DNA from: a virus
DNA length: 39,122 bases
Virus record (IMG/VR): IMGVR_UViG_3300038607_000022
Direction: 5' to 3' (one strand)
Below are positions 1,227 through 39,122 of the stretch, in pieces. The translations under genes and the position numbers were made by a program. Below the pieces are notes generated by a model. It ran no database searches and was not told the DNA's origin. It saw only the letters and a list, made by a program, of their open reading frames with translations. Every line of letters begins with the position of its first letter. Positions within the stretch are counted from its first letter, which is position 1.

Positions 1227-1739
1227 ATGAGTGTAAATAAAGTTCTTCTTCTGGGAAATGTAGGTAAAGACCCAGAGATTAGATATTCAAATGACGGAAC
1301 AGCTTTCGCCAATTTAACACTGGCAACATCTGAGAAATGGAAAGATAAACAAACGGGTGAGCAGAAGGAAAAAACAGAGTGGTCAAACCTTGTTTTTTCT
1401 GGTCGATTAGCTGAGGTTGTTGGTCAGTATGTAAAAAAAGGCTCTAAACTTTATGTTGAGGGCAAATTGAATACGCGCAAATGGCAAGACCAGCAAGGTC
1501 AAGACCGATACACCACAGAGATTAAGGTTTTAAGCATGGAGATGCTAGATAGCAAGCCTGCGAACCAAGGAACGCAACAGCCTGTTAATCAAGCCTTCCA
1601 ACAACCACAACAACAAGGCGGCTTTAACCAGTCGCCACAGCAGCACACAGGCGTTAATCAGGTGCAACAATCACCGCAACAATGGCAGCAACAGCAAGCG
1701 GGATTTCAAGGAGGTCAACAGCAGATGCCGGGAAAGTAA
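1227..1739 (+). CDS. ssb: Single-stranded DNA-binding protein, zero-frame product lacking the acidic tip
   Basis: OB-fold N-terminus ([16 protein letters not shown]...[15 protein letters not shown]...[10 protein letters not shown]) and a Q/G/P-rich linker. Ends PGK-stop without the usual DDDIPF tail. Confidence 0.9.
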
Positions 1740-3007: not shown

Positions 3008-3180
3008 CAGCATCACAACAAGCAAAAGCTAATGGGCTTAACTCTCTTCGGCAAATGGCAGAGCTAACAGGCGTAAAAGAGCGCACTTTAATCAATTGGC
3101 ACAAAGATAGGCCGCTATTATTTAAAGTTATTTTAACTGGATTAGCCGCTGAGCTTGGTTATGATTACAATAGTAACTAA
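3004..3180 (+). CDS. Small helix-turn-helix protein (58 aa)
   Basis: ATG 3004 overlaps the upstream stop (ATGA). SLRQMAELTGVKERTLINWHK looks like an HTH. The longer ORF-track start at 2935 lies inside the upstream gene. Confidence 0.55.
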   Translation: MTASQQAKANGLNSLRQMAELTGVKERTLINWHKDRPLLFKVILTGLAAELGYDYNSN

Positions 3181-3196
3181 TTTAGAGGCTTTGAAG

Positions 3197-3580
3197 ATGA
3201 AAAAAGAAATAATCATACACTGTAGCGCAACGCCCAATGGAAGGCCGCACACAGCAGAAGATATTCATCGATGGCATACGGAGCGCGGCTGGTCTGGTAT
3301 TGGTTATCACAAAGTTATCCGAACAAGCGGTATTGTTGACGATGGAAGGCCAGAATATTGGCAAGGCGCACACGCCAAAGGTCATAATAAAAACTCTATT
3401 GGTATCTGTTTGATTGGTACAGATGAGTTTTCAAGCGCTCAGTGGTCGTCTTTAAAAGCATTAATTGAATGTTACAAAGAAGTTTACCCGGGCTGTAAAA
3501 TAATTGGCCACAACGAAGTAAGCGACAAAAAGTGTCCGGGCTTTGATGTTCAAGAGTGGCTTAAGCGGGAGCAAATATAA
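3197..3580 (+). CDS. N-acetylmuramoyl-L-alanine amidase endolysin (Amidase_2, T7-lysozyme-like)
   Basis: IIIHCSATP, GWSGIGYH, AHAKGHNKNSIGICLIG and HNEVSDKKCPGFDV motifs. GAGG 8 nt upstream of ATG 3197. Confidence 0.85.
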   Translation: MKKEIIIHCSATPNGRPHTAEDIHRWHTERGWSGIGYHKVIRTSGIVDDGRPEYWQGAHAKGHNKNSIGICLIGTDEFSSAQWSSLKALIECYKEVYPGCKIIGHNEVSDKKCPGFDVQEWLKREQI

Positions 3581-4077
3581 TGAGTTGGAAAAAAACTTTA
3601 AGCGCTATTGCGCCGACACTGGCAACCGCTTTAGGTGGCCCTATTGCAGGAACTGCCGCTAAATTTATATCTGATAAGTTTCTAGGCGGTGAAAGTGTTA
3701 GTGAAACTGATATTGAGCAGTTTGTTTTAAACGCTAATCCAGAGCAGTTATCTGAAATAAAGAAAGCCGACCATGAATTTAAGTTGCAAATGGAAAAGCT
3801 CGGCGTAGATGTTTTCGCGCTTGAAGTTAAGGATAAGGAAAGCGCTAGAGAGCATAACAAGCAATCGTCTATGCCAGCGGTTTTGTCTGTGTCGCTAACT
3901 GTTGTCATAGGGCTGTTGCTGTATGCTTTGTTTTATATCGAGCCGCCACAAGGCGCTAAGGAGCCATTGCTAATAGTTTTAGGGATGGTTGTAAAAGAAT
4001 GGTCAAACGCTATGCACTTTTGGTTTGGCACAACTAGATCAAGCCAAGACAAAACAAAGCTTATCAAGTATAATTAA
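3580..4077 (+). CDS. Putative holin (3-TM, GTA-type holin-like)
   Basis: Start overlaps the endolysin stop. MSW...GGPIAG N-terminus, central charged helix and C-terminal hydrophobic segments resemble the 3TM holin family. Confidence 0.55.
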   Translation: MSWKKTLSAIAPTLATALGGPIAGTAAKFISDKFLGGESVSETDIEQFVLNANPEQLSEIKKADHEFKLQMEKLGVDVFALEVKDKESAREHNKQSSMPAVLSVSLTVVIGLLLYALFYIEPPQGAKEPLLIVLGMVVKEWSNAMHFWFGTTRSSQDKTKLIKYN

Positions 4078-4177: not shown

Positions 4178-4642
4178 ATGTTCGACGCAAAAACAACTAT
4201 ATGCATAATTTTGTTTTGCATGTTGTTTGTAAGAAAAACCCGCAAGGAGTGTTTTATTCTGCTTTGCGGGTATTTTTTATACACATATTTTATTAAAGAC
4301 CTTAGCGCCAATTTTTATTATTCCATTACTGCGCTGCTTAATTTACTTATAGGCCTAGCTGTTTTTCGGCTTAACTTACTTGTCTCGGCATGCTCTTATA
4401 GTCTAGTCTTAGTCAACGTTTATGGCTATTGGCTTTGGTACAGTTATCAAGAACCTACATTGTATGATAATATATCCCTAACAATACTAACAACTCAACT
4501 GGCGCTTATAGTGCAGAAAGGCTTGCTAGATGGAATTGGAAACAATAGCAAACATAATGTGGCTGAGCCTTTTGGCGCTTTTGGCTTTCAACAGAATATT
4601 AAAATGCGTAAGAACCGCAAAGCTAAAGAAGATAATCAATGA
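4178..4642 (+). CDS. Multi-pass membrane protein, function unknown (start uncertain)
   Basis: Four to five hydrophobic segments and a basic C-terminal tail. Located inside the lysis cassette. No clear RBS. Confidence 0.5.
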   Translation: MFDAKTTICIILFCMLFVRKTRKECFILLCGYFLYTYFIKDLSANFYYSITALLNLLIGLAVFRLNLLVSACSYSLVLVNVYGYWLWYSYQEPTLYDNISLTILTTQLALIVQKGLLDGIGNNSKHNVAEPFGAFGFQQNIKMRKNRKAKEDNQ

Positions 4643-4863
4643 AAGAAGAGTTAAGGCAAACGACAGAGGCGATAGCTAGTCACCCAAAAACTGCGGTGGC
4701 TGTAGCGGCTGGGGCTAACTTTAATTCGTGGTGGCTGAGTTGGGGTAGTCCGATTGTTGACGCCGTAACTTCTATTCTTGGTATAGTGCTTGTTAGCGTG
4801 TTGATACGATATCACTGGCAGAACACGAAAAAGATAATTAAAGAAAATAACCAGGAAAGTTAA
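4639..4863 (+). CDS. Small membrane protein (lysis-cassette associated)
   Basis: ATGA overlap with the upstream ORF. Two hydrophobic stretches and a charged C-terminus. Confidence 0.55.
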   Translation: MKEELRQTTEAIASHPKTAVAVAAGANFNSWWLSWGSPIVDAVTSILGIVLVSVLIRYHWQNTKKIIKENNQES

Positions 4864-4910: not shown

Positions 4911-5279
4911 ATGGCTGTTATAATCGTTAGCAACCAAAGCAACATAGCAAAGGGCGAAATAGTCACTATTGTTGAAGACTCTCACCAATTTACACATAAC
5001 GAGTGTATGGCTGAGTGGATAAGTAAAGGTAATTCACCACAAGCATGGTTTAGAACCTTTTCTCTTGTTAGAGTTGCAGATAAAACAAAAGCAGAGCTAG
5101 AGTATCTTACCGAGCCACTTTATAACAACGCTACAGCAGAGCGAGAAATTTTAAATATAAGAAAGTGGTTTTTTATCGAACCGCCAGAGCAATCCCCGCA
5201 TTACATCGACCTGTTAGACAGTGGCGAAGTTTCAACCATGTTTGAAGAGTGCCTTCCTTATCTTCGAGAGCGTACGTAA
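4911..5279 (+). CDS. Hypothetical protein
   Basis: Same-strand ORF whose stop overlaps the next start (TAATG). Confidence 0.6.
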   Translation: MAVIIVSNQSNIAKGEIVTIVEDSHQFTHNECMAEWISKGNSPQAWFRTFSLVRVADKTKAELEYLTEPLYNNATAEREILNIRKWFFIEPPEQSPHYIDLLDSGEVSTMFEECLPYLRERT

Positions 5280-6754
5280 TGCCCACGCAAATAACAAAAA
5301 CAGTTAAGCCTAGCGGCGGTGACTATTCGTTGCTCAGTACGGCATTAGCGGCTGTGCCTGTTGACTTAATAGCCGCAGACGAGCAGTGGACGATAGAGTG
5401 TTACACATTTGCTGGCGGCTTGGATGATAGTGTTAGCATTAGCGGGGATAATAACGCAGACTCAACAAGGTACTGGGAAGTGGTAGCAGCATCAGGACAC
5501 GAGTACGATTATGCAACTGGTGCAGGATTTAAGCTGGATTATCAGGCGCAGGCATCTGGAGGTACTTTTTTCGCATCAACTAACAGTGATGCATATTTTA
5601 AGCTGAAAAATATCGGCATATTTAGATCAACAGTTACGAGCCAAAAACCTTTGCAGACATCGGCTGATAATATTGAAATAACAGGTTGTACTATATGGAA
5701 TAATAGTGGATCTAGAGTTGTTATGGATTTAGGATTGGTTAATGACTCGACTATAAATAATAATTTAATTATACAAGCTGGTACATACGATTGCGTCAGG
5801 TTGGATAGAGTATTTTCTGGCACTTTATTTCAGAATAATACAATTATATCGCTGGGTGGTGGCGATGCGTTTGAGCCTGATACAACTACAGCAGGGGTGT
5901 TAAAGAATAACTTATATATTGGTGGCGGTGGTTTTAATTCAAACGGTAATATATGGGATTCAGCTAGTGATTATAACGCATCTCAAGACAATACAGCGGT
6001 CGGTGGTAATTCACTGCAAAACCGCACAACAGCAGATTTAGTTGATTACGCTGGGGGAGACTATAGAACAGCGGCAAGTAGCGCATTAGCTACAGCGGGC
6101 GAAGGCGGAACGTTTATCGGTTTTGCTTTAGAGAGTGGAGGCTCTGGCGAAACCATCGTTCTTGATAGCGGCTCTTACCTTCTCAGCGGTACAGATCTAA
6201 ATCTTATAGCATCGTTAAATATATCTACGACAACAGGCAGTTACACACTAACTGGCTCTGATGCGAATTTAATAGCGGCATATAAAGAAATTGCTAACAC
6301 TGGAAATTACACACTAACGGGAACAGATGTCACTTTAGTATACACTCCCAGCGGTGGTGGTGAGTCTATAACTCTAGATAGCGGAACCTATTCGATGGTA
6401 GGTCAAGACAAAACACTGTCCGCTAATTTTGTTCTTAATGCCCAAGCTGGTAGTTATCAGCTGTCAGGAACAAACACTCCAATTAAGTATAATGGTAGTA
6501 TTCATGTTGATAGCGGTTTTTATAGCTTAACTGGCAGTGATTTAAGTCTATATTCTAACTATGTTATAATTGCATCAACAGGTGATTACGAATTAACGGG
6601 TTCACCTGTAACGCTTAGGTATTCTGGTGATGTTTTTCAGAATATCGGCGCGGTCACTGCTGGGTTTGCTGATAGCGGCATATCGACAGCATTTAAACAG
6701 GACTCTGTAACAGCAGGGTACAAAGCAAATTCAATAACAGTGAGATTTAAATAA
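5279..6754 (+). CDS. Right-handed beta-helix (pectate-lyase-like) protein with a C-terminal array of about 22-aa repeats
   Basis: N-terminal VKPSGGDYSLLSTAL and N/G/T-rich rungs. Seven GxYxLxGxDxxL repeats at roughly 6150-6630. ATG 5279 overlaps the upstream stop. Confidence 0.6.
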   Translation: MPTQITKTVKPSGGDYSLLSTALAAVPVDLIAADEQWTIECYTFAGGLDDSVSISGDNNADSTRYWEVVAASGHEYDYATGAGFKLDYQAQASGGTFFASTNSDAYFKLKNIGIFRSTVTSQKPLQTSADNIEITGCTIWNNSGSRVVMDLGLVNDSTINNNLIIQAGTYDCVRLDRVFSGTLFQNNTIISLGGGDAFEPDTTTAGVLKNNLYIGGGGFNSNGNIWDSASDYNASQDNTAVGGNSLQNRTTADLVDYAGGDYRTAASSALATAGEGGTFIGFALESGGSGETIVLDSGSYLLSGTDLNLIASLNISTTTGSYTLTGSDANLIAAYKEIANTGNYTLTGTDVTLVYTPSGGGESITLDSGTYSMVGQDKTLSANFVLNAQAGSYQLSGTNTPIKYNGSIHVDSGFYSLTGSDLSLYSNYVIIASTGDYELTGSPVTLRYSGDVFQNIGAVTAGFADSGISTAFKQDSVTAGYKANSITVRFK

Positions 6755-8980: not shown

Positions 8981-10399
8981 ATGACAGTATCAGTACATAG
9001 AAAAGAATACACAGACGGGTTAGATGATGTAACCAAAAATCGCGACGCCGTAAAAGGTGAGCGAGCAATCAAGGATAAGCGCACGGATTACCTGCCGCCA
9101 CTCCCTTCTATGTGTTGCACATACCGACAAACCGAAAACGGCAGCCAAGTTATACAGGGCAGCACTATCACTGGTGAAGGTCTAGCAAGTTATAATAAGT
9201 ATTTATCCCTTGCCTATTTTTATGGAGCTAGTGGTCGTACTGTAGATGGGCTGACCGGGCTTATATTTTCCAAACAGCCAGAAATGGAAATAGATCCGCG
9301 TGTTGAATATCTCATTGATAACGTCGATGGCAAAGGCAATTCTTTACGCAAGCAATCACAAAAAGCGTGTGAAGAAGCTTTTATTACGCCTAAATCTGGC
9401 TTATTAGTTGATTATCCGAATGTCTCACAGCCCGTATCGGTAGCCGATGCTGAACGATCAAACCTACGCCCGAAAATACTACACTATAACTATGAATCTA
9501 TCGTTAACTGGCATTATGACGTAGTAGACAACCAACAAAAGCTAACATTGGTTGTGTTAGCAGAGCAGCGAGAGACATTAGTCGATAGATTTAAAATCGA
9601 GTATGAGACCGTTTATCGCGTATTGGAAATAATCGAGGGGAACTATTATCAATCTGTTATCAATGAGTCGGGAGAAGATGTAGAGCCTCAAGAATTGGTG
9701 CTAGTTAACGGCTCACCTGTAAATGAAATTCCTTTCTTCTTAATCGAGGTAGGCTCGCAAGATAAATCAATCATTAATGATTTAGTTGATGCTAACTTGT
9801 ATCACTATCGTACTTTTGCTGATTACGGCGGTAAATTACATTATTCGTCATTTGTTATTTATTACGAGACAGGCGCTATTGATGGTGATCAAAACATGGT
9901 CATCGGTAACGGTGTTAAGTGGTCTAATCAATCAACAGATGCGACTTTTGGCGTCTTACAGCCAGACGGTAACGCAGATTCGCATATGATGGCCCTAAAA
10001 GACATGGAAAATCGCATGGCTGCTTTAGGTGCTGAAATGCTCAAGCCTAGAGGCAGTGCGGCAGAGTCGGCAGAAGCTAAATCACTCGACCAGGTAGCGC
10101 AAAACTCAACGGTTTCTAGTGTTGCTATCAATGTATCAGAAGCTTACGAAAAAGCGCTGGATTTTGCTTTACGTTGGATGGGTGGAGAGGGTGAAAACGT
10201 CTATCATCTATCAACTGACTACAACCCTAAAGGATTAGCTGGTAATGATTTGACAGCATTAGTAAACGCTTTACAGCTAGGCGCGATTTCTTACGAAACA
10301 TTCTACGAGAATCTTCAAAGAGGAGGTGTTGCAAATCCTGAGCGAACTATTGAAGATGAGCAGGCGCAAATACAAGGCGCTGAGCTAGGGCTTGAATAG
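8981..10399 (+). CDS. Portal protein
   Basis: 472 aa, directly after TerL and before a MuF-like gene. Acidic C-terminus. Confidence 0.75.
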   Translation: MTVSVHRKEYTDGLDDVTKNRDAVKGERAIKDKRTDYLPPLPSMCCTYRQTENGSQVIQGSTITGEGLASYNKYLSLAYFYGASGRTVDGLTGLIFSKQPEMEIDPRVEYLIDNVDGKGNSLRKQSQKACEEAFITPKSGLLVDYPNVSQPVSVADAERSNLRPKILHYNYESIVNWHYDVVDNQQKLTLVVLAEQRETLVDRFKIEYETVYRVLEIIEGNYYQSVINESGEDVEPQELVLVNGSPVNEIPFFLIEVGSQDKSIINDLVDANLYHYRTFADYGGKLHYSSFVIYYETGAIDGDQNMVIGNGVKWSNQSTDATFGVLQPDGNADSHMMALKDMENRMAALGAEMLKPRGSAAESAEAKSLDQVAQNSTVSSVAINVSEAYEKALDFALRWMGGEGENVYHLSTDYNPKGLAGNDLTALVNALQLGAISYETFYENLQRGGVANPERTIEDEQAQIQGAELGLE

Positions 10400-11466
10400 T
10401 GGCTAACCAACAACTAACAGAATCAAGTAGCCGTCATGCTGTATATGTTCAGCGTGTTGCTGGTGGTTTAGATGACGAGTTTCTACCCTACCTTGAGAGA
10501 TTAAAAAAGGATGTTTCATCTTGGATTGTGCTTAATGATTGGGATCAACTAAGACAGCGTGACTTATTGCGCGAGCTTACATCCATTCAAACCGAAATCT
10601 ATAACGAATATAACAAGCAGTTAATCCTAGACTTAGGCGAGGTAGGATTAAACGATGCTAAATGGCAGCAAAGACAAATAAAAAGCGTTTTACCTGATGA
10701 TTTCGACCACTTAGTTACAACGCCACCCAAAAGCGCAATTATCAGCGTGATCAAATCTACGCCGCTTGTGTTCGAGGATGCCAACCAGGTTAAGTTGTTG
10801 CAGCCGTTTATTCGGGACTGGTCTGCAAGTGAAATAAATCGAGTTAACGGGATTATTCAAACGGGCTTTTTAACAGGACAATCTAATAGAGAAATCGCAA
10901 AGGCTGTTGCGGGTAAAGGTGGCTATCTAGATAAACAGGTAAGGCAGCATAACGAAACATTAGTAAGAACTGCAGTTAATCATACCGCAACAGTGGCGCG
11001 TGATGCTGTAATGAAAGATAACGACGATATTATTATCGGTTATCGTTGGCTTTCGACTCTGGACGGGCGCACTAGTGATATTTGCCGAGGGCTAGACCAG
11101 CAGGTGTTTAAGACTGATGACGACTACCAACCGAAGCCCCCGGCGCATCCTGGTTGTAGAAGCACCACAATCCCTGAGATTAATCCTGACTTACAGCCCA
11201 AATCAAAGCGCGGTAAACGTGGCAGCAGCGGTGATGAAGGTAGAGAACCAGTAGGCGCTAATACAACCTATTACGGATGGCTGAAAAAACAAACCGCACA
11301 ATTCCAAGATGAGACTATTGGGCCAACTAGAGGAAAGCTGTTGCGTAATGGTGGATTAACCAGCGAAGAGTTTAGAAGATTATCAACTGATGATAAGTTT
11401 AGACCGCTTGATCTAGAATCCATGCGTAAAAAATCGCCTGAAAGTTTTGAAAATGCCGGTCTTTAG
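10399..11466 (+). CDS. Head morphogenesis protein (Mu F / SPP1 gp7 family)
   Basis: IGYRWLSTLDGRTSDICRGLDQQVF...PPAHPGCRSTTIP is the family signature. GTG start overlaps the portal stop. Confidence 0.85.
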   Translation: MANQQLTESSSRHAVYVQRVAGGLDDEFLPYLERLKKDVSSWIVLNDWDQLRQRDLLRELTSIQTEIYNEYNKQLILDLGEVGLNDAKWQQRQIKSVLPDDFDHLVTTPPKSAIISVIKSTPLVFEDANQVKLLQPFIRDWSASEINRVNGIIQTGFLTGQSNREIAKAVAGKGGYLDKQVRQHNETLVRTAVNHTATVARDAVMKDNDDIIIGYRWLSTLDGRTSDICRGLDQQVFKTDDDYQPKPPAHPGCRSTTIPEINPDLQPKSKRGKRGSSGDEGREPVGANTTYYGWLKKQTAQFQDETIGPTRGKLLRNGGLTSEEFRRLSTDDKFRPLDLESMRKKSPESFENAGL

Positions 11467-11487
11467 GTGGCGACTGAGTGTTTTAAC

Positions 11488-11509
11488 ACGAAGTCAATTT
11501 TAGCTTCGT
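11488..11509. terminator. Hairpin between convergent genes (ACGAAG-N10-CTTCGT)
   Basis: 6-bp stem followed on the plus strand by TTGTCGTATTT. Overlaps the stop of the minus-strand gene. Confidence 0.35.
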
Positions 11510-11694
11510 TTGTCGTATTTCACTATTATCAAAATAAGACCAACCAAAGCGACCGCAATAAAAAGCAAAGAAGAGGCGATTACACCGTAAATAAAGCCAT
11601 CCGCCCCTTGCTCGTTAGGCATATAAACCCAACTAAACAACCAGCAAGTTATGCTAAAAGCAATCAGTAATGCGGTTATTTTCACCGTTTTCAT
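11500..11694 (-). CDS. Small two-TM membrane protein (island gene 4)
   Basis: AAGGGA RBS. Two long hydrophobic segments. The opposite-strand ORF 11467..11670 is judged a shadow. Confidence 0.65.
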   Translation of the reverse strand: MKTVKITALLIAFSITCWLFSWVYMPNEQGADGFIYGVIASSLLFIAVALVGLILIIVKYDKRS

Positions 11695-11704
11695 TGCATC
11701 CCTT

Positions 11705-11887
11705 TTATCCTATGTCGTATTTAATTTCAGATTTAAGGTGTATAGTAAATATATCTCTTTCAGAGCAGTAACTAATCTCTTCTATCGCGTAGTCTACACC
11801 AAAAACCTTTATTGTTTCTCTAGATTCGAGTTTCCGCCTTATTTTCGACTCTAAAGCACAACAACCAAACTGTATTATCATTTTCAT
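11705..11887 (-). CDS. Hypothetical protein (island gene 3)
   Basis: AAGGGGA RBS 5 nt before the ATG. 10-nt gap to the next gene. Confidence 0.6.
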   Translation of the reverse strand: MKMIIQFGCCALESKIRRKLESRETIKVFGVDYAIEEISYCSERDIFTIHLKSEIKYDIG

Positions 11888-11963
11888 TTTATCCCCTTAT
11901 ATGATTTTAGCTAATTGTTTAAGCTCTTCCGCTAAATCTAGCGCCCGCTCTTTTGTTGTTCGA

Positions 11964-12299
11964 CTAAAGCACCTCTGTTAATATACGCCAGTTTTTTAAT
12001 GTCATTCCGTCGAATTCAGCCTCAACAGGTTTTCCGTTTAATTGATCAATCGAGTTGCATTTTGCATCCCTCAACAAGTCGCTAACAAACCGCATAACCT
12101 CATCATAGCCTCTGCTGCGGTCTTCTTCTGTCCATTTGCAGTGCTCTGTATGTTTTACCTGGTTAGCGTCCCAAGATGATTTATTATCACCACAGCCCCA
12201 GCCATTACCACTAATTGTAACTGTCAAGCCTAAGCAAGCGTCCTGATAACCACCAAGACCAAACTTTACATTTTCTAATTTGCCCAGTTTCTTTTCCAT
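11964..12299 (-). CDS. Hypothetical protein (island gene 2)
   Basis: Strong AGGAG RBS. 111 aa with six Cys. No family recognised. Confidence 0.65.
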   Translation of the reverse strand: MEKKLGKLENVKFGLGGYQDACLGLTVTISGNGWGCGDNKSSWDANQVKHTEHCKWTEEDRSRGYDEVMRFVSDLLRDAKCNSIDQLNGKPVEAEFDGMTLKNWRILTEVL

Positions 12300-12358
12300 T
12301 TCAATCTCCTGTTTTTAACGAGTATAAACCTCAGCTTTTAATTAACAAATCCGATCAG

Positions 12359-12739
12359 TTAACTTAAATATCGACCAGAAGAAAACCAGTCTGATTTTAT
12401 TTTCTCGGCGTGCGTTAAGCATTTTAGCATGGTGTCTGCCTCTCCTTTCTCGGTTAGAGGCATCCCTTCTGGAAACATCCATCCGCCCAGTGTTGTTGTT
12501 TTTTTAGCGAATAAAAAGCGGCTCACCTTTTTGGTCGAGAATGGGACTTTAATCTTTTTGTGGTAGTAGTGATTAAAGTTGTGAGGATTGCACGTAACTA
12601 CCGAATAAACATCTCCCGCATGAAAGTCGCCATATAAAGACCTGCCATGCTTATCGTAGTAGCAAGTATCCATTGAACCGTGCTTTATTTTCTCGTCTTT
12701 GTAAATAAGCTCAAGAATCATTCTGATTATGTTGCGCAT
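12359..12739 (-). CDS. Hypothetical protein (island gene 1)
   Basis: AAGGG RBS 7 nt before the ATG. First gene downstream of the consensus leftward promoter. Confidence 0.65.
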   Translation of the reverse strand: MRNIIRMILELIYKDEKIKHGSMDTCYYDKHGRSLYGDFHAGDVYSVVTCNPHNFNHYYHKKIKVPFSTKKVSRFLFAKKTTTLGGWMFPEGMPLTEKGEADTMLKCLTHAEKIKSDWFSSGRYLS

Positions 12740-12771
12740 ATTCTAACCCTTTATTTAAGTGTATATACCAG

Positions 12772-12800
12772 ATTATAGCCGCTACTTAGGTTTTTATCAA
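12772..12800 (-). promoter_or_regulatory. Near-consensus sigma70 promoter for the leftward island (TTGATA-N17-TATAAT)
   Basis: On the minus strand, -35 at 12800..12795 and -10 at 12777..12772. Spacer is exactly 17 nt. About 26 nt of leader before ATG 12739. Confidence 0.7.
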
Positions 12801-12803
12801 AAG

Positions 12804-12812
12804 TGTTAAAAT
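12804..12812 (+). promoter_or_regulatory. Extended -10 element TGTTAAAAT ahead of the scaffold gene
   Basis: TGnTAAAAT with no good -35. A sister motif, TGATAAAAT, lies at 18412-18420. Confidence 0.35.
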
Positions 12813-12873
12813 ATCAACAATCCATAACGGATTAAAACTCTAAGAGTTAATCAAATACCTAAGGTGTGCACAC

Positions 12874-13539
12874 ATGTTAAAAGGAATCGAAAACATTGAC
12901 CTAACTGCTGATGATGCGGTTGATCAAATAAATGCGCTTGCTGCTGGTTTGGTGAGCAAGAAAGATGAATTGAAAGACTTACTTGCAAAAGCCAATACTG
13001 AGGCGAGAAAAGAGCGTATAGGTGAAGCTTCTGCGGCAGAACTTGAACGTCTTCGGCAGTTTGAAAAAACAGCTTTACGCTCACAAGAAGAAGAAAAAGG
13101 AAATTACCAAAAAGCGCTAGATATGGCGCAAAGTGATTTCACAAAGCAGCTTGAATCGTTGCAATCTCAACTCCAAGAGAAAGAGAGTGCGCTAACTAAG
13201 CTGTTAATTGATGATGGACTAAATAAAGCGCTCGACGGGGTGAATGTTAATCCATCGTTAAAAGCTGGGGCGGAGGCTATACTCCGTTCACAAGCGCAAC
13301 TTACCGACGGCAAAGCTATGATCGGTGATAAGTCACTAAGTGATGCAGTACAAGAGTGGGCTGAATCGGATGCGGGCAAAGCGTTCTGTTTAGCACCTAA
13401 CAACTCAGGCGGCAACGCCAACGGTGGCGGAACTAGTTATTCGTCAAACAAAAAATTTAGTGATTATTCATCGGCTGAGCTTAGTCAAATTAGACAGACA
13501 AAGCCCGAAGAATATCAAAGATTATTAACAACGAGGTAA
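12874..13539 (+). CDS. Scaffolding protein
   Basis: Charged, helical and coiled-coil-like sequence, 221 aa, immediately upstream of the capsid gene. AAGGTG RBS. Confidence 0.7.
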   Translation: MLKGIENIDLTADDAVDQINALAAGLVSKKDELKDLLAKANTEARKERIGEASAAELERLRQFEKTALRSQEEEKGNYQKALDMAQSDFTKQLESLQSQLQEKESALTKLLIDDGLNKALDGVNVNPSLKAGAEAILRSQAQLTDGKAMIGDKSLSDAVQEWAESDAGKAFCLAPNNSGGNANGGGTSYSSNKKFSDYSSAELSQIRQTKPEEYQRLLTTR

Positions 13540-13542
13540 GTT

Positions 13543-14550
13543 ATGTCTACTTTAGCTAACATTATTGATGTAACCGTTTTTCAGGATTTACCAGCGGTAG
13601 ATTCACCAGAAAAAACGGCATTTTATGAATCTGGCGTTATTGTTCGCAATCCGCTTTTAGATTCTTTCGCAATGGCTGCGGGTAAAACTGCGGAGTTACC
13701 ATTCTGGAACGACTTGGACGCAAGCTCAGAACCTAACCTGTCAGATGATACAGCAACCCTAGCCACACCTGACGAAATCTTACAAGGCGAACAAATCGCA
13801 CGTAAGCTTTTTGTTAACAATGGCTGGAAAGAAGCTGATCTTGCTGGTGAACTGGCTATGGGCGGAACAGCTATGGAGCAGGTACGCGCAAGAGTTGATA
13901 CTTATTGGCGTCGTCAGTGGCAGCGTCGATTAGTTGCTGCAACTGTTGGCTTACTAGCTGATAACGTGGCTAACGACTCAGGCGATATGGTATTTGATGC
14001 GTCTATTGAAGATGGTGATAATGCAACGGCAGCTAACTTGTTTAGCCGTTCAAACTTTACCGCCGCAGCCTTTACGCTTGGTGATATGTTTGATGTAACT
14101 GGTGCTGTTGCTATGCACTCTGTTGTGTATAAACGTGCTGTTGACAATGACGACATTGAGTTTATCCCTGACTCACAAGGCAACATGACCATCCCGACTT
14201 ATTTGGGTAAGCGTGTTATTGTTGATGATGGTATGACCGTAGTTGCTGGTGGCACTTCTGGCTTTAAATACACCACTATCTTATTCGGTGCTGGTGCGTT
14301 TGGCTGGGGTGAAGGTATGCCTCATATCCCTACTGAGATTCAGCGCCAAGAGTCTGCTGGTAACGGTGGTGGTATTGAAACGCTATGGAGTCGTAAAACT
14401 TGGTTATTGCATCCGTTTGGCTATCAGTTCACCTCTGCATCTGTTGCGGGTGTTTCGCCTACTCTTGCAGAGTACCAGAACGCCGCTAACTGGGATCGCG
14501 TAATTGAACGTAAGAATGTTCCATTAGCCTTCTTGGTAACAAACGGCTAG
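13543..14550 (+). CDS. Major capsid protein (SPP1 gp13-like, HK97 fold)
   Basis: Collinear resemblance to SPP1 gp13 as recalled: ...ELPFWNDLD..., IPTYLGKRVIVDDGM, ILFGAGAFGWGEG, LLHPFGYQFT and ANWDRV. Confidence 0.85.
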   Translation: MSTLANIIDVTVFQDLPAVDSPEKTAFYESGVIVRNPLLDSFAMAAGKTAELPFWNDLDASSEPNLSDDTATLATPDEILQGEQIARKLFVNNGWKEADLAGELAMGGTAMEQVRARVDTYWRRQWQRRLVAATVGLLADNVANDSGDMVFDASIEDGDNATAANLFSRSNFTAAAFTLGDMFDVTGAVAMHSVVYKRAVDNDDIEFIPDSQGNMTIPTYLGKRVIVDDGMTVVAGGTSGFKYTTILFGAGAFGWGEGMPHIPTEIQRQESAGNGGGIETLWSRKTWLLHPFGYQFTSASVAGVSPTLAEYQNAANWDRVIERKNVPLAFLVTNG

Positions 14551-14570
14551 ATAATGCCCAAGTAATAAAG

Positions 14571-14610
14571 AAACACCCTAGCGATAACATCAAAGGGGTG
14601 TTTTTTATTA
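14571..14610 (+). terminator. Rho-independent terminator after the capsid gene
   Basis: AAACACCC ... GGGTGTTT stem followed by a T-run (GGGGTGTTTTTTATTA). Confidence 0.6.
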
Positions 14611-14651
14611 TCCGCTGTTTAATGTATAATCAGTAAAAAGAGAGGTGCATC

Positions 14652-14789
14652 ATGTTTACACAAAAAGACTTAATCCAATCAGCACATAAGATTGATCAAA
14701 ACATCAAAGCTAAGGCCGAGAATAAAACTAATGTTGTAACAAAGAAAAAGCCAGCGACTAAGCGCAAACCTAAAAAAGAGAGCGCTTAA
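14652..14789 (+). CDS. Small basic protein (45 aa), below the ORF-track cutoff
   Basis: AGAGG RBS 6 nt upstream. 46 codons read by hand. Lys-rich tail. TATAAT at 14625-14630 upstream. Confidence 0.5.
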   Translation: MFTQKDLIQSAHKIDQNIKAKAENKTNVVTKKKPATKRKPKKESA

Positions 14790-14791
14790 TA

Positions 14792-15448
14792 ATGCCTTTT
14801 AGAGACGATCAACAATACATAGCGCACGAGGTAAGGCGTTCACGTATAGAGCGCGCTGCTGGCTCGCTTGGTGCTGGGGTTTATGCTGGTGGCTCTGCCG
14901 TTGCTGTTTTTGTTGGCGACGGTTACGCAGGTGTTACAAATAACCATGTTAAGTTCCAGTTTTTCGTTGAGTCACACAACCAGACACAGCGCGGGCTTGT
15001 TTTACAGGGTAACAGCTACACGGCTGCGTCAACATTCAGAAATCTAACTTTTAAAATACAGTCAGATGATACCATGCAGGTTCAATGGCGAAATTCTGGC
15101 GGAACTAATAACAACATAAATACAGCCGTTGTCCCTGTCGGTGTTTGGCTTTCTGTTGAGTTTTACATCGATGGAAACAATTATGAGCTAAAAGTAGATT
15201 GGGACGCTAATCAAAGTGGTGTTAGTGATTATAGCCCTGTTTATGCTGGCGGCGATTGGCGCATACTGGATGACGGTACAGCGTTAAGCACCGGGGTAAA
15301 AATAACGAAAGTGCGCTGGTTTGCTGGTGGCAATAAAGCGTTAGCCTGCAATTGTGATGAAGGCGCAGGCAATACGTCTATTAACTACGGCATCATTGGC
15401 AATGGCTCTATTGTTGGTGGAAATATTCACGGGGTTTACAATGGCTAA
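14792..15448 (+). CDS. Hypothetical structural protein, possibly a lectin/LamG-like beta-sandwich
   Basis: Beta-rich composition. Lies between the capsid and connector genes. The fold call is a guess. Confidence 0.55.
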   Translation: MPFRDDQQYIAHEVRRSRIERAAGSLGAGVYAGGSAVAVFVGDGYAGVTNNHVKFQFFVESHNQTQRGLVLQGNSYTAASTFRNLTFKIQSDDTMQVQWRNSGGTNNNINTAVVPVGVWLSVEFYIDGNNYELKVDWDANQSGVSDYSPVYAGGDWRILDDGTALSTGVKITKVRWFAGGNKALACNCDEGAGNTSINYGIIGNGSIVGGNIHGVYNG

Positions 15449-17710: not shown

Positions 17711-18096
17711 ACGAAGTATTCAAAGCTATTTACGACAAACTAACCGCCGACTTAAGTGTTAGTGTTTATGACCATGTGCCGCAAGATTTGCCCGAGTCAG
17801 ACTATCCCTTTGTGCGAATCGATTACCCAAACTTAAACGACGATGACACAGATTTAGAATTAGCTTGGAGTGGTGACATTCAAATAATCACCTATAGCCG
17901 ATATAGAGGCATTAAAGAAATAGCAGATTTAACAGATGCGGTGTATAACTCACTACACCGAATCAGCGACCTACAAACAACTAACTACACTATAAGTAAT
18001 CTAGTACAAAGCTTTATCAGCACAGTAACCGAGCCTGATGGATTGACTCGGCATGGTGTGCAGCGATTTACTTTAGAGTTTGAGAAGGTTACTTAA
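17707..18096 (+). CDS. Tail terminator / completion protein (DUF3168-like)
   Basis: IYDKLTAD...VYDHVPQD... N-terminus. Lies just before the tail tube gene. Confidence 0.6.
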   Translation: MNEVFKAIYDKLTADLSVSVYDHVPQDLPESDYPFVRIDYPNLNDDDTDLELAWSGDIQIITYSRYRGIKEIADLTDAVYNSLHRISDLQTTNYTISNLVQSFISTVTEPDGLTRHGVQRFTLEFEKVT

Positions 18097-18382
18097 TCCC
18101 CTTATTCACTTCGTTAATAATCTCTCTAATTTGCTCAGGCGTGAAATATAGATTGGTTTTTAGATCTATGTCAGATTTTTTGCTGATTTTGCTTGTCAAC
18201 CCATCAACAGCCAAACTAAGCAATTTATAACTCTTTCCGCCGTTACTGTGTTTATAGTACCAATCATGGCTATGCCTAATAAGTTTTAAAAACTCGTCTA
18301 CTGTATAGCCTTTTTGATGTAGTGCGATTGTTATTTTATTGTGTTTCATTGCTTGCCCTATAAAACCGTATAACCACCCCAT
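18089..18382 (-). CDS. Leftward moron gene, possible HTH protein (start may be ATG 18349)
   Basis: The only minus-strand ORF in the tail module. YTVDEFLKLIRHSHDWYYKH is HTH-like. Its 3' end overlaps the upstream plus-strand gene by 8 nt. Confidence 0.5.
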   Translation of the reverse strand: MGWLYGFIGQAMKHNKITIALHQKGYTVDEFLKLIRHSHDWYYKHSNGGKSYKLLSLAVDGLTSKISKKSDIDLKTNLYFTPEQIREIINEVNKGIK

Positions 18383-31916: not shown

Positions 31917-32150
31917 TTAACTGCTCCGATGAGTTAAGCCTCGCTCGATAGCTCTTTGCCGATAATGCCTAATCTGATCACTATTCAATCCAAATTTACG
32001 GCATGATTCATTAATGCCATGCTCCTCGCTATACAGCCATATCTTCCGCACTAGCTCTGGTTTTGCTTCTCTGCTGCTATTCTTGCTGCGTTTTATTTCC
32101 GGCTCTGTATTGCCTAGGGAGAATTTTTCGATTACTGATAGGTTAAACAT
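31917..32150 (-). CDS. Small HTH-type DNA-binding protein
   Basis: GINESCRKFGLNSDQIRHYRQRAIERG is HTH-like. Start overlaps the methyltransferase stop. Confidence 0.55.
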   Translation of the reverse strand: MFNLSVIEKFSLGNTEPEIKRSKNSSREAKPELVRKIWLYSEEHGINESCRKFGLNSDQIRHYRQRAIERGLTHRSS

Positions 32151-33448
32151 TATTGGTCCATATAGCTTAATAAGTGAGAAATAACATCAACGGTCCACCC
32201 GTTGCCGGTCATTTTGTATAATTGCGTGTTGCTGATACCGGCGTCTAACAGTGTATTAATATGGTGTTCTGGTATTGTTTGCAGTCTCATACACTCTCGA
32301 GGTGTGAGTTTTCGATATTTAAGGTTATTAATATCGCTATTGACAGCAAACTTTGGTGCGTGTGATGTTGTCAAAGTGTCAGTTTTGCCGGCTCCAGATT
32401 TTAATATTCTGCCTAGCTCGCTTATTCCTGATTTTCTAGCGTCGTTTTTGTGCGGCCTATACCCTCTATCATCTTCTGTTATACCTTTAACGCGCTCATT
32501 ATCATTGACACTTACAACAAGGTGATTATTGTGCTCCCAGGCGTTAGCGCTCAGGCAAGGTGTTTTACCGTTTTCTGCTCTAATTCCACCAGGGTTATTG
32601 CCTCTAGGTGTTTGCATGATTAACAAATTATCTTTTTGCACCGTGGTTATGGTGTTGGTTTTATCATCGCCTCTCACTTCGATGCGCTGTTCGGTTTTTA
32701 GGTTGGGGTTATAATCATCCCGTTTGCCGGTTTCAGGGTTAATCTTGCGCCCTATCATTGCACCGCATTTTATGTAATCTCCTTGACGGCCATTTTTTAC
32801 ATACTCCATAGCTGACAAATTCTTAGCTTTACCGCCTAAATCGTCACGTAGTATTTTTTCATTCCGCTTACAGAATTTACTCGACATATAGGTAAAATCT
32901 CCATCTGCTTCAATAATATCTTTAAGCACAATCCCTTTGTCTTCTGGCTGCTCACATGCCCAGCTAGTCCAATAATAACGATTACGATTCTGAGCAGACA
33001 CTAACGCGCTATTAATTAAAATTTTATGCACTTTACCTAGCGCTTGCTCTGTGTGGCGTGTGATATATTGTTCAAATTCCTTTTTCATCTTGACGTTTTC
33101 AATTAAGAAATGCGCTTTAGGGTTATTTTGTTTTACATGCTGCATTATCTCTAACATTGTCCAAAACAACATTCCGCGCTCGTCTTTATCGCCCAACTGC
33201 TTACCAGCCATTGACCATGCCTGACAGGGAAAACCACCGGTAACTAAATTAATACTGGGCCAGTCAATATCCCACTCGCGCCACTTGGTTACATCGCCTA
33301 ACTGAATTGTATCAGGGTAAAGCGCCTGGGCTGCTTTGATTGCGTGTTTATCAATTTCGGCGCTGTAGTATTTATTAACTTCAATACCTAGGTTTTCTAG
33401 AGCCATATAGCCGCATGACATGCCGTTGAACAAACTTAAAATATTCAT
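32150..33448 (-). CDS. DNA (cytosine-5)-methyltransferase, orphan
   Basis: Motif I LFNGMSCG, motif IV GGFPCQAWS, motif VI ENV, C-terminal TPRECMRLQTIP and GNGWTV. Long variable region. Confidence 0.9.
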   Translation of the reverse strand: MNILSLFNGMSCGYMALENLGIEVNKYYSAEIDKHAIKAAQALYPDTIQLGDVTKWREWDIDWPSINLVTGGFPCQAWSMAGKQLGDKDERGMLFWTMLEIMQHVKQNNPKAHFLIENVKMKKEFEQYITRHTEQALGKVHKILINSALVSAQNRNRYYWTSWACEQPEDKGIVLKDIIEADGDFTYMSSKFCKRNEKILRDDLGGKAKNLSAMEYVKNGRQGDYIKCGAMIGRKINPETGKRDDYNPNLKTEQRIEVRGDDKTNTITTVQKDNLLIMQTPRGNNPGGIRAENGKTPCLSANAWEHNNHLVVSVNDNERVKGITEDDRGYRPHKNDARKSGISELGRILKSGAGKTDTLTTSHAPKFAVNSDINNLKYRKLTPRECMRLQTIPEHHINTLLDAGISNTQLYKMTGNGWTVDVISHLLSYMDQ

Positions 33449-36739: not shown

Positions 36740-37648
36740 ATGATTAATATTGTTGGCATGTCTGGTGGAAGAAGTAGTCTCCACTTGGCTAGAAAGCTTC
36801 AGTTAATGGGCTATAATCCTGTTTGTTTATTTGCGGACACTGGATTTGAGCATGATGAAACATATAGTTTTATAAAAAGATGCGTTAGCGAATTTAATTT
36901 AAATGCTCACTTTATACGCGCAGAAGTTAACGGCGAAGGTGTTGGTAATACGCCTATAGAGTTAAGTATTGATGATATAGGGTATAGGCCAGAAACCTTT
37001 GCTGCTCACTTCGCTAAATATGGTACTCCTACTTTCCACGCCAAGAATTGCACAGACAGGCTAAAGGGGATTGTCATGGACAAATGGAAGGATGAAAATT
37101 TCGGACGAAAAAACTATGTTACATGGACTGGTTTTAGAGCTGATGAAACGAGAAGGATTAAGGATAGAGAGCAGCAATTAGAATTAGTCGGTTTTGAAGC
37201 AGATAAGAAAAAAGTAAAAGTAAATACAAATCAAAGGTATTTAGCTGACATTTCCGAAGAATCAAAAAGCGACATCATTAAGATGTGGAAGGATTCAGAT
37301 TTTGATTTAGGGATTGGCGAGCATAATGGTAATTGTCTTTTTTGTATTCACAAGTCTTGTGAGAAGCTAGCCCTATCGGCGAGAGAGAACCAAGAGAAAG
37401 CTTCTGATTGGATTGAATTAGTTAACGATTCAAATGTAAGAACAATGCCAAGAAACAAGCAGTTACCTCCTGATATAATGTATAGAGGATATCATTCATT
37501 AAACTCAATAATTAACACATTTAAAGATTATTCCAATGGTGACCTTGCTGAAGCAATAAATAAGGGAAGAAAGTTTGATAGCGGGTCTTGCTCAGAGTCT
37601 TGTGACCCGACACCGCAACTTTCACTTGTTCTTGACGACCATTATTAA
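36740..37648 (+). CDS. PAPS-reductase-family PP-loop protein
   Basis: N-terminal IVGMSGGRSS PP-loop, FADTGFEHDETY, and Cys motifs GNCLFC and SGSCSESC. Confidence 0.7.
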   Translation: MINIVGMSGGRSSLHLARKLQLMGYNPVCLFADTGFEHDETYSFIKRCVSEFNLNAHFIRAEVNGEGVGNTPIELSIDDIGYRPETFAAHFAKYGTPTFHAKNCTDRLKGIVMDKWKDENFGRKNYVTWTGFRADETRRIKDREQQLELVGFEADKKKVKVNTNQRYLADISEESKSDIIKMWKDSDFDLGIGEHNGNCLFCIHKSCEKLALSARENQEKASDWIELVNDSNVRTMPRNKQLPPDIMYRGYHSLNSIINTFKDYSNGDLAEAINKGRKFDSGSCSESCDPTPQLSLVLDDHY

Positions 37649-38995: not shown

Positions 38996-39122
38996 ACGGA
39001 GCGCTTGCGTCTCCGTTAATGAGGGTTATGAACTCATCGGAGCAGTTAAATAGAGTTTATGTAGTAATATAAATCTAAAGCTTAACTAGAGATAAGAAAA
39101 TGAAAACAATACAAGATACAGA
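38996..39122. repeat. Terminal direct repeat, identical to 1-127
   Basis: Exact identity with the window start. Confidence 0.95.

Follow-up and report, generated by a model that had tools for sequence, protein, structure and literature searches.

A leftward four-gene insertion at the MuF/scaffold junction of a siphophage, read as a probable mosaic cassette of accessory genes

Phage morons have been described as extra DNA that carries its own promoter and its own terminator, deviates in composition and is expressed from the prophage (PMC3594210, after Juhala et al. 2000), and the lambdoid examples include HK97 gene 15 and lambda lom and bor (Cumby et al. 2012, PMC3594210). In addition, the C-terminus of the MuF protein is a known site of polymorphic-toxin cargo (Jamet et al. 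2017, PMC5576092). Here, these systems are compared with a block of about 1.4 kb in the virus record IMGVR_UViG_3300038607_000022 (39,122 nucleotides (nt), analysed whole and called the window below), in which four minus-strand open reading frames (ORFs) lie between the MuF and head scaffold genes, opposite in direction to the late genes. The phage that bears this island is a siphophage with a genome of roughly 39 kb. On balance, we favour reading the region as a mosaic cassette of accessory genes, an insertion of about 1.4 kb between MuF and scaffold that was assembled gene by gene from unrelated sources, in which at least two genes (those for the proteins of 126 and 111 amino acids (aa)) are early-type genes lying ectopically and in reverse within the head module, and whose products would act in lytic infection. 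The island genes and their flanks are as follows.

12359-12739, minus strand: gene 1, 126 aa (120 aa from Met7), basic (pI 9.3), from a rare phage family of 12 members
11964-12299, minus strand: gene 2, 111 aa, PHROG 28440, mildly acidic (pI 5.4)
11705-11887, minus strand: gene 3, 60 aa (58 aa in the JGI call), an ORFan with the ribosome-binding site AAGGGGA
11500-11694, minus strand: gene 4, 64 aa, an ORFan, predicted inner-membrane protein with two transmembrane segments
10399-11466, plus strand: MuF/gp7-like head morphogenesis gene, left flank (PF04233, phrog_241)
12874-13539, plus strand: head scaffold gene, right flank (phrog_206)
13543-14550, plus strand: major capsid protein (MCP) gene, after the scaffold gene

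An earlier note on this DNA, made from the sequence alone, had described four minus-strand genes at this place running against the late structural genes, and both the ORF positions and the JGI gene calls on the source contig, which give products of 120, 111, 58 and 64 aa, agree with that description. The strong ribosome-binding sites (RBSs) that it had reported are likewise present, with AGGAG before the 111-aa gene and AAGGGGA before the 60-aa gene. Gene 4 starts 10 nt past the stop of gene 3, and the GC skew is inverted over the island, as expected for genes on the minus strand. For each of the four ORFs the annotated frame had the best codon-usage score of the six; the 111-aa gene alone scored like the long genes of the phage, and the scores of the 126-, 60- and 64-aa ORFs fell inside the range of non-coding decoy ORFs.

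Comparison with relatives shows that the island is extra DNA inserted at the MuF/scaffold junction. The relatives were 42 IMG/VR loci retrieved through the MCP (L093-L134), whose MCPs are 43-82% identical to that of the window phage, and in most of those where MuF could be located the scaffold gene comes directly after it, with the MCP gene next. The gap from MuF to scaffold is 71-161 bp in L093, L094, L103 and L109 versus 1408 bp in the window, and in relatives with a scaffold too diverged to detect, the 800-990 bp between the end of MuF and the start of the MCP gene leave space for a scaffold gene only. Genes for the four island proteins are absent from all 42 relatives. The synteny comparison that had been proposed as a check thus finds the block to be extra, the short gaps elsewhere marking it as an insertion in the window phage. 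No direct or inverted repeats hinting at a mechanism of insertion flank the island, a megablast search of window positions 9000-15000 against GenBank phages gave no match, and searching IMG/VR and JGI metagenome contigs with MuF brought up no close relatives. A separate mosaic boundary was seen in L093 and L094 when compared with window positions 8981-14550, as their MCPs are 82% identical to that of the window, with portal at 45-48%, MuF at 36% and scaffold at 39-43%; the sharp drop in identity implies recombination at the scaffold/MCP junction.

Other members of this phage group carry different material around MuF. One relative has a fusion of MuF to an ADP-ribosyltransferase (L104 4322-6070; PF03496, E 3e-14), one a MuF split by an intein-like segment (L110 4266-6227), and one a MuF with a 250-aa extension containing HExxH (L119 3414-5222). 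An extra DUF6378 gene lies between MuF and scaffold in L120 (4724-5230), and an HNH endonuclease gene between portal and MuF in L105 (1598-2251). The cultured phage phiEap-2 (Guernseyvirinae), with a MuF 38% identical to that of the window, has a variable stretch of 2.4 kb at the same place, including a minus-strand gene. The MuF/scaffold junction in this phage group is therefore a recurrent cargo site. As a side observation, the tblastn match to MuF falls in two pieces over about 1.8 kb in many Salmonella Jersey-like phages of GenBank, pointing to an intron, intein or homing endonuclease inserted within MuF in those genomes.

These fusions bear on one explanation of the island, namely that it is the remnant of a MuF polymorphic toxin whose small downstream genes are orphan immunity genes. 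Toxin fusions of relatives sit at exactly this site (the ADP-ribosyltransferase of L104 and the HExxH extension of L119), small immunity ORFs usually trail MuF toxins (PMC5576092), and the 111-aa protein has a faint match to CdiI_2 (PF18593) at E 0.12. That match scores 13.6 bits, however, against a Pfam gathering cut-off of 26.7, and the window MuF is short, with 355 aa that comprise the Phage_Mu_F domain only and no C-terminal toxin domain. The island genes are also on the opposite strand, and every other phage that was examined carries its 111-aa homologue in an early operon, well away from MuF. We regard this origin as extremely unlikely.

The reading of the insertion as a mosaic cassette, as opposed to a conserved module, comes from the distribution of its genes. 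Across about 140 loci, no co-occurrence of the four genes was observed, and none of the 126-, 60- and 64-aa island proteins was found near homologues of the 111-aa protein in 80 IMG/VR loci or in further contexts that were fetched. By blastn, homology to other phages (85%) is confined to 11963-12301, which is the 111-aa ORF itself. The lack of co-occurrence, together with DNA homology that ends at the borders of a single ORF, indicates that the block was assembled gene by gene, and the term "module" used for it earlier does not hold. An apparent case of co-occurrence in L090, where a gene for a product of 111 aa lies near the homologue of the 126-aa protein, was ruled out, as that gene is unrelated in sequence.

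The one well-populated family among the island proteins is that of the 111-aa protein, for which no family had been recognised before. Residues 3-111 match positions 4-110 of the 110 in the profile of PHROG 28440 (E 3.3e-13), and the homologues form at least 390 clusters at 90% identity, nearly all of them 111 aa long, on viral contigs of 4 to 318 kb. The only cultured phage with a homologue is Psychrobacter phage D'Alembert (DAL_140), and a literature search for phrog_28440 returned nothing. Among 185,579 bacterial species genomes a homologue was found in six, all of them metagenome-assembled genomes (MAGs). The sole homologue on a long bacterial contig is that of L147 (an uncultured gammaproteobacterium MAG, 2.45-Mb contig, 627363-637686), which may for this reason lie in a prophage, and the other five are on MAG contigs of 2-9 kb. 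Mean column identity in the family is 63%, and the invariant residues, in the numbering of the window protein, are F13-G14-x-x-G17-Y18, W43-D44, W56-x-E58 and R105-x-L107-x-E109, with the consensus KWTEEDR for the block around W56 and WRILTEV for that around R105. The protein has four cysteines, not the six counted before, of which C22 and C54 alone are semi-conserved among family members.

An AlphaFold2 (AF2) model of the 111-aa protein built with 54 family members had a pLDDT of 94.6 and a pTM of 0.82. It contains strands at residues 2-16, 22-31 and 34-43, a helix at 58-78 and strands at 91-97 and 100-106, and this order of three strands, helix and two strands is that of the OB fold, with five strands and a helix between strands 3 and 4. 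The top Foldseek matches of the model, although weak, cluster on OB-fold binders of single-stranded DNA, namely STN1 (CST complex), baculovirus LEF-3, phage single-stranded DNA-binding protein (SSB) and DUF669. The most likely role of the 111-aa protein is that of a small accessory factor with an OB fold, which would bind nucleic acid in DNA recombination or RNA-repair transactions.

The genomic contexts of PHROG 28440 point in a similar direction. The closest homologues, at 73-91% aa identity, are found in early operons beside ERF, SSB or YqaJ, as follows.

L001: ERF-SSB-...-111
L137/L138 and L010/L011: 111-ERF-YqaJ
L140-L142: ERF-94 aa-117
L136: early operon beside ERF, SSB or YqaJ

These neighbours are specific to the subclade closest to the window copy; of 80 IMG/VR loci, just 4 have them near the 111-aa gene, and the idea that they are general neighbours of the family was accordingly rejected. 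In 20 of the 80 loci, which are more distant, the neighbours are instead genes for RNA ligase (DraRnl-like or Rnl1-like), metallophosphoesterase and AAA_33 kinase, and in large phages the homologue stands among ribonucleotide reductase, primase and helicase genes. As the contexts elsewhere are early, the 111-aa gene of the window is an early-type gene placed ectopically in the head module. A recurrent array of five genes, encoding an unknown 206-aa protein, an Rnl1-like RNA ligase, a metallophosphoesterase, an AAA_33 kinase and a 335-aa protein, was also seen directly upstream of the homologue in L034, L036, L014, L056 and L060, and looks like a phage RNA-repair cluster. The neighbouring RNA ligases have an OB domain at their N-terminus (PHA02142); the possibility that the 111-aa protein is a stand-alone version of it, or of any other recurrent neighbour, was rejected, with hhalign probabilities of at most 11%.

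The 126-aa protein, also described before as lacking a family, belongs to a small family of 12 proteins with the motif G-S-W-M-W-P-D-G-L-P-L. Its homologues likewise lie in early regions, beside DNA polymerase genes in Vibrio phage VPMCC14, Lar in L090, and ERF and a helix-turn-helix (HTH) gene in L091. A profile search of the family against the PDB gave no match at E up to 10, and a fold search with the AF2 model, whose pLDDT was 66.8, returned nothing meaningful and no match to a known fold. A full HMMER match to P0122 (1906 aa, 10 stretches) was discarded as the translation of a low-complexity eukaryotic repeat.

Scans of all four proteins against Pfam, PHROGs, NCBIfam and PADLOC yielded only PHROG 28440, for the 111-aa protein, and sub-threshold noise (CdiI_2, CYCXC, phrog_24123 and phrog_944). 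No match to a virion or assembly family, which would have spoken against the accessory character proposed for the island, was found in Pfam, PHROGs or NCBIfam; since relatives also build heads without the island genes, the island is not a virion or assembly component. PADLOC-DB, which covers defence systems only, gave no match for the four proteins at E up to 1. The proposal that the island is a host-interaction, exclusion or counter-defence unit thus drew no support from PADLOC, and the contexts of the 111- and 126-aa homologues point instead to early regions of nucleic-acid metabolism.

In its fullest form that proposal is a counter-defence or host-takeover cassette, in which at least one small protein inhibits host immunity and is expressed at once on infection, as in anti-CRISPR and anti-restriction operons with strong promoters. 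Such a cassette would account for small proteins of unknown function behind a strong promoter that are variably present among relatives, for the position of the 126-aa homologue of L090 two genes from the Lar restriction-alleviation gene, and for a 111-aa family that is phage-restricted and conserved across very different phages (the 63% mean column identity), as would fit the binding of a conserved target. The RNA-repair genes that adjoin this family are also known countermeasures to tRNA nucleases. The proteins nevertheless match no known family, the empty PADLOC result included, no Aca-like HTH regulator is present in the block, and the four genes are unlinked to each other elsewhere. We consider counter-defence unlikely, though it deserves some weight. 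A broader form of the idea would make PHROG 28440 a phage-restricted OB-fold family that protects or channels single-stranded nucleic acid, for example by shielding recombination intermediates, by serving phage RNA or tRNA repair as a cofactor or by acting as a decoy for a host defence based on nucleases, and the island a portable, promoter-equipped counter-defence cassette insertable anywhere in a phage genome; we hold this to be rather doubtful.

For the two smallest products, the only matches were identical sequences of this phage recovered from other samples. The earlier note had called the last of the four a protein with two transmembrane segments, and the 64-aa product indeed has hydrophobic peaks at residues 6-24 and 39-57, with an acidic loop between basic termini. 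From hydropathy and charge, it is predicted to be a small inner-membrane protein with both termini inside; its match to phrog_24123 is weak (E 0.0055). The 60- and 64-aa ORFs could also be chance ORFs in a non-coding spacer, with only the 126- and 111-aa genes expressed, as neither has homologues beyond these copies and both have codon scores within the decoy distribution. Because of those scores, the case for coding is made by RBS, spacing and gene calls only. The good RBSs, the 10-nt gap, an annotated frame that is the best of six and the calls of independent gene callers speak for real genes, as does a hydropathy pattern of the 64-aa product that is typical of membrane proteins, and we think it quite unlikely that both ORFs are spurious.

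A membrane protein of this size might alternatively be a holin or antiholin displaced from the lysis cassette, which would make the island a lysis-timing unit. Its 64-aa length, two transmembrane segments and charged C-terminus resemble class II holins, and no PHROG-annotated holin was found beside the amidase gene. The amidase gene (3155-3580) is, however, directly trailed by three membrane-protein genes (3580-4077, 4178-4642 and 4639-4863) that are natural holin or spanin candidates, relatives without the island must still lyse, and the 64-aa protein matches no holin family in Pfam or PHROGs. A displaced holin is very unlikely.

Transcription of the island as a mosaic cassette would depend on the following elements.

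12772-12800, minus strand: putative sigma70-type promoter, with -35 TTGATA at 12800-12795, a 17-nt spacer and -10 TATAAT at 12777-12772
11488-11509, no strand assigned: weak hairpin that overlaps the stop codon of gene 4 and lies 22 nt past the MuF stop
12804-12812, plus strand: possible rightward extended -10, TGtTAAAAT, from a reading of the sequence only

The near-perfect sigma70 promoter sequence reported before, TTGATA-N17-TATAAT at 12800..12772, is present. It matches the consensus at 11 of 12 positions, lies in the 134-nt gap upstream of gene 1 with its -10 ending 33 nt before the first ATG, and is the best consensus match among all intergenic regions of the window. The chance of a site with at least 11 of 12 matches in a 134-nt gap on the correct strand is P ~0.002. 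The claim of a convergent hairpin was borne out in part, since a hairpin of 7 bp, including one G-U pair, with an 8-nt loop exists at 11488-11509. It is weak, with folding z-scores that do not stand out (-1.7 and -1.2, the latter on the island strand), lacks a U-tract on the island strand and was not picked up by the terminator scan; it is not a canonical intrinsic terminator on either strand. No internal terminator was found within the island.

Under this reading, host sigma70 RNA polymerase would start about 7 nt downstream of the -10 of the 12800..12772 promoter and produce one leftward polycistronic mRNA, in the order 126, 111, 60 and 64, independent of the rightward late transcript. As no real terminator closes the island, this transcript would run on antisense into MuF. 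The rightward late transcript would either cross the island antisense, which would damp island expression late in infection, or restart before the scaffold gene. The TGtTAAAAT element stands back-to-back with the island promoter and could, speculatively, restart transcription of scaffold and MCP; it has no -35 match and was missed by the promoter scan. A sigma70-like, extended -10-like element, TGTATAAT, also precedes late genes at 14623-14630 on the plus strand. Just past the MCP gene and upstream of that element, a hairpin (ACACCC...GGGTGT) followed by T6 was observed at 14573-14606 on the plus strand, which the terminator scan missed because of its long loop, and 14573-14630 as a whole has the look of a terminator with a promoter behind it that restarts transcription among the late genes.

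The promoter and the membrane protein invite comparison with a classical moron, that is, a unit of lysogenic conversion or superinfection exclusion expressed from a repressed prophage, in which the 64-aa protein would block DNA entry like HK97 gp15. As extra DNA, the island interrupts a gene pair that is contiguous in relatives, has a putative promoter of its own, lies inside a late operon and encodes a small inner-membrane protein, all of which fits the published description of morons and gp15 (PMC3594210). The earlier characterisation of the architecture as moron-like accordingly stands for the extra DNA and, as far as sequence goes, for the near-consensus promoter, and falls for the terminator, which is missing. 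Furthermore, the ORFs scanned in the apparently complete genome gave no match to an integrase or CI-like repressor family, the 111-aa family is almost absent from bacterial genomes and occurs in lytic-type and jumbo phages, and the 64-aa protein has no homologues, leaving a likeness to gp15/YebO, Imm or Sie proteins unsupported. We see little chance that the island is a classical moron. A role of the island products in lytic infection rather than lysogenic conversion is favoured, because the 111-aa family is nearly absent from bacterial chromosomes and no integrase or repressor was found among the scanned ORFs.

Several observations weigh against the reading of the region as a cassette of early-type genes with their own promoter and an OB-fold factor. 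Two of the four ORFs, those of 60 and 64 aa, are without homologues and have codon scores in the decoy range. The difference in GC content is modest, at 38.2% for the island compared with 40.6% over the whole window and 42.4% in its long genes, and the 111-aa gene, at 42.0%, is indistinguishable from the rest. Sites with at least 11 of 12 consensus matches arise about 1.5 times per window by chance, and the two observed in the whole window are no more than this expectation; a consensus match alone is not proof of promoter function. As TGTATAAT before the late genes is also sigma70-like, promoter type alone proves neither early nor independent timing. The Foldseek matches of the 111-aa model have E values of 0.003-0.1 (best in BFVD, 0.003; STN1 in the PDB, 0.012) with TM-scores of 0.3-0.57, no sequence profile ties the family to SSBs, and a PDB profile search was empty at E up to 10. 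Finally, the window already encodes Erf and a canonical SSB besides the 111-aa protein, which puts the need for a further binder in question; the two genes lie at the following positions.

616-1179: Erf gene of the window
1227-1739: canonical SSB gene of the window

The window corresponds to JGI metagenome contig Ga0246066_00005 of sample 3300038605. An exact 127-nt direct repeat is common to both ends (1-127 and 38996-39122), and the genome is therefore probably a circularly assembled, complete one of about 38,995 bp. Identical sequence was found in 8-15 contigs of the JGI, ENA and Logan assemblies, which argues that the assembly is real; the other assemblies are 100% identical, so population variation is unusable as a test of selection on the ORFans. 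The portal gene lies upstream of MuF and the MCP gene downstream of scaffold, and neither Rfam families nor tRNAs were found in the window.

Elsewhere in the window, a second lone leftward gene (18089-18382, minus strand), for a basic 97-aa protein, stands in the tail module with the tail-completion gene on one side and the major-tail gene on the other. The protein has no family in Pfam, PHROGs, NCBIfam or PADLOC, and a perfect TATAAT (18386-18381) precedes by 32 nt an internal ATG at 18349 that has the RBS AGGG. It looks like a single-gene insertion in the same style as the four-gene island. A PAPS-reductase-like protein (phrog_33262/424) is encoded at 36740-37648 and a 432-aa DNA methyltransferase adjoining an HNH endonuclease at 32150-33448, for which roles in DNA modification or anti-restriction are possible. 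The largest unassigned gene is a 501-aa ORF at 5249-6754, just upstream of the terminase genes, without a Pfam or PHROG match.

The island is an ordinary kind of promoter-equipped phage accessory ("moron-like") insertion in a structural operon, and its architecture is textbook phage mosaicism with little that is new in itself. What the comparison adds is the documentation of the MuF/scaffold junction as a recurrent cargo site in this phage group. PHROG 28440, a widespread, strongly conserved and unannotated family with a confident OB-like predicted fold, is a better biochemical target than the island, and its interest lies in the repeated link to ERF/YqaJ recombination genes and to clusters of RNA ligase, phosphoesterase and kinase genes.

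Among known systems, the island is like the lambdoid morons in being extra DNA between genes adjacent in relatives, inside a late structural operon, with its own sigma70-type promoter (by sequence, in the case of the island) and a small membrane protein, and perhaps in its slightly lower GC content. It differs from them in having four genes of separate origin instead of one, in its orientation against the operon, in the lack of a recognisable terminator and of any sign of a temperate phage in the scanned ORFs, and in that its well-populated 111-aa family is restricted to phages, with members in genomes of lytic type rather than in bacteria or prophages. With the MuF toxin and immunity cargo it shares the genomic position, at which relatives carry a MuF-ADP-ribosyltransferase and other C-terminal extensions; the window MuF, in contrast, is short, and the island consists of separate opposite-strand genes without ties to toxin or immunity families. 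The 64-aa protein has two transmembrane segments as class II holins do, but its gene is not beside the endolysin gene. The 111-aa protein resembles OB-fold binders (phage and bacterial SSBs, T7 gp2.5/DUF669, STN1 and LEF-3) in its predicted order of beta1-beta2-beta3-helix-beta4-beta5, in weak structural matches and in the ERF, SSB and RNA ligase genes that neighbour its family; unlike them, it has neither profile similarity nor an SSB-like acidic C-terminal tail, its Foldseek matches are marginal, and it occurs in a phage with a canonical SSB of its own. It matches PHROG 28440 (e.g. DAL_140) from end to end and shares the invariant residues, yet members of that family elsewhere are co-oriented with their neighbours in early, replication, recombination or RNA-repair regions, whereas the window copy stands reversed in the head module.

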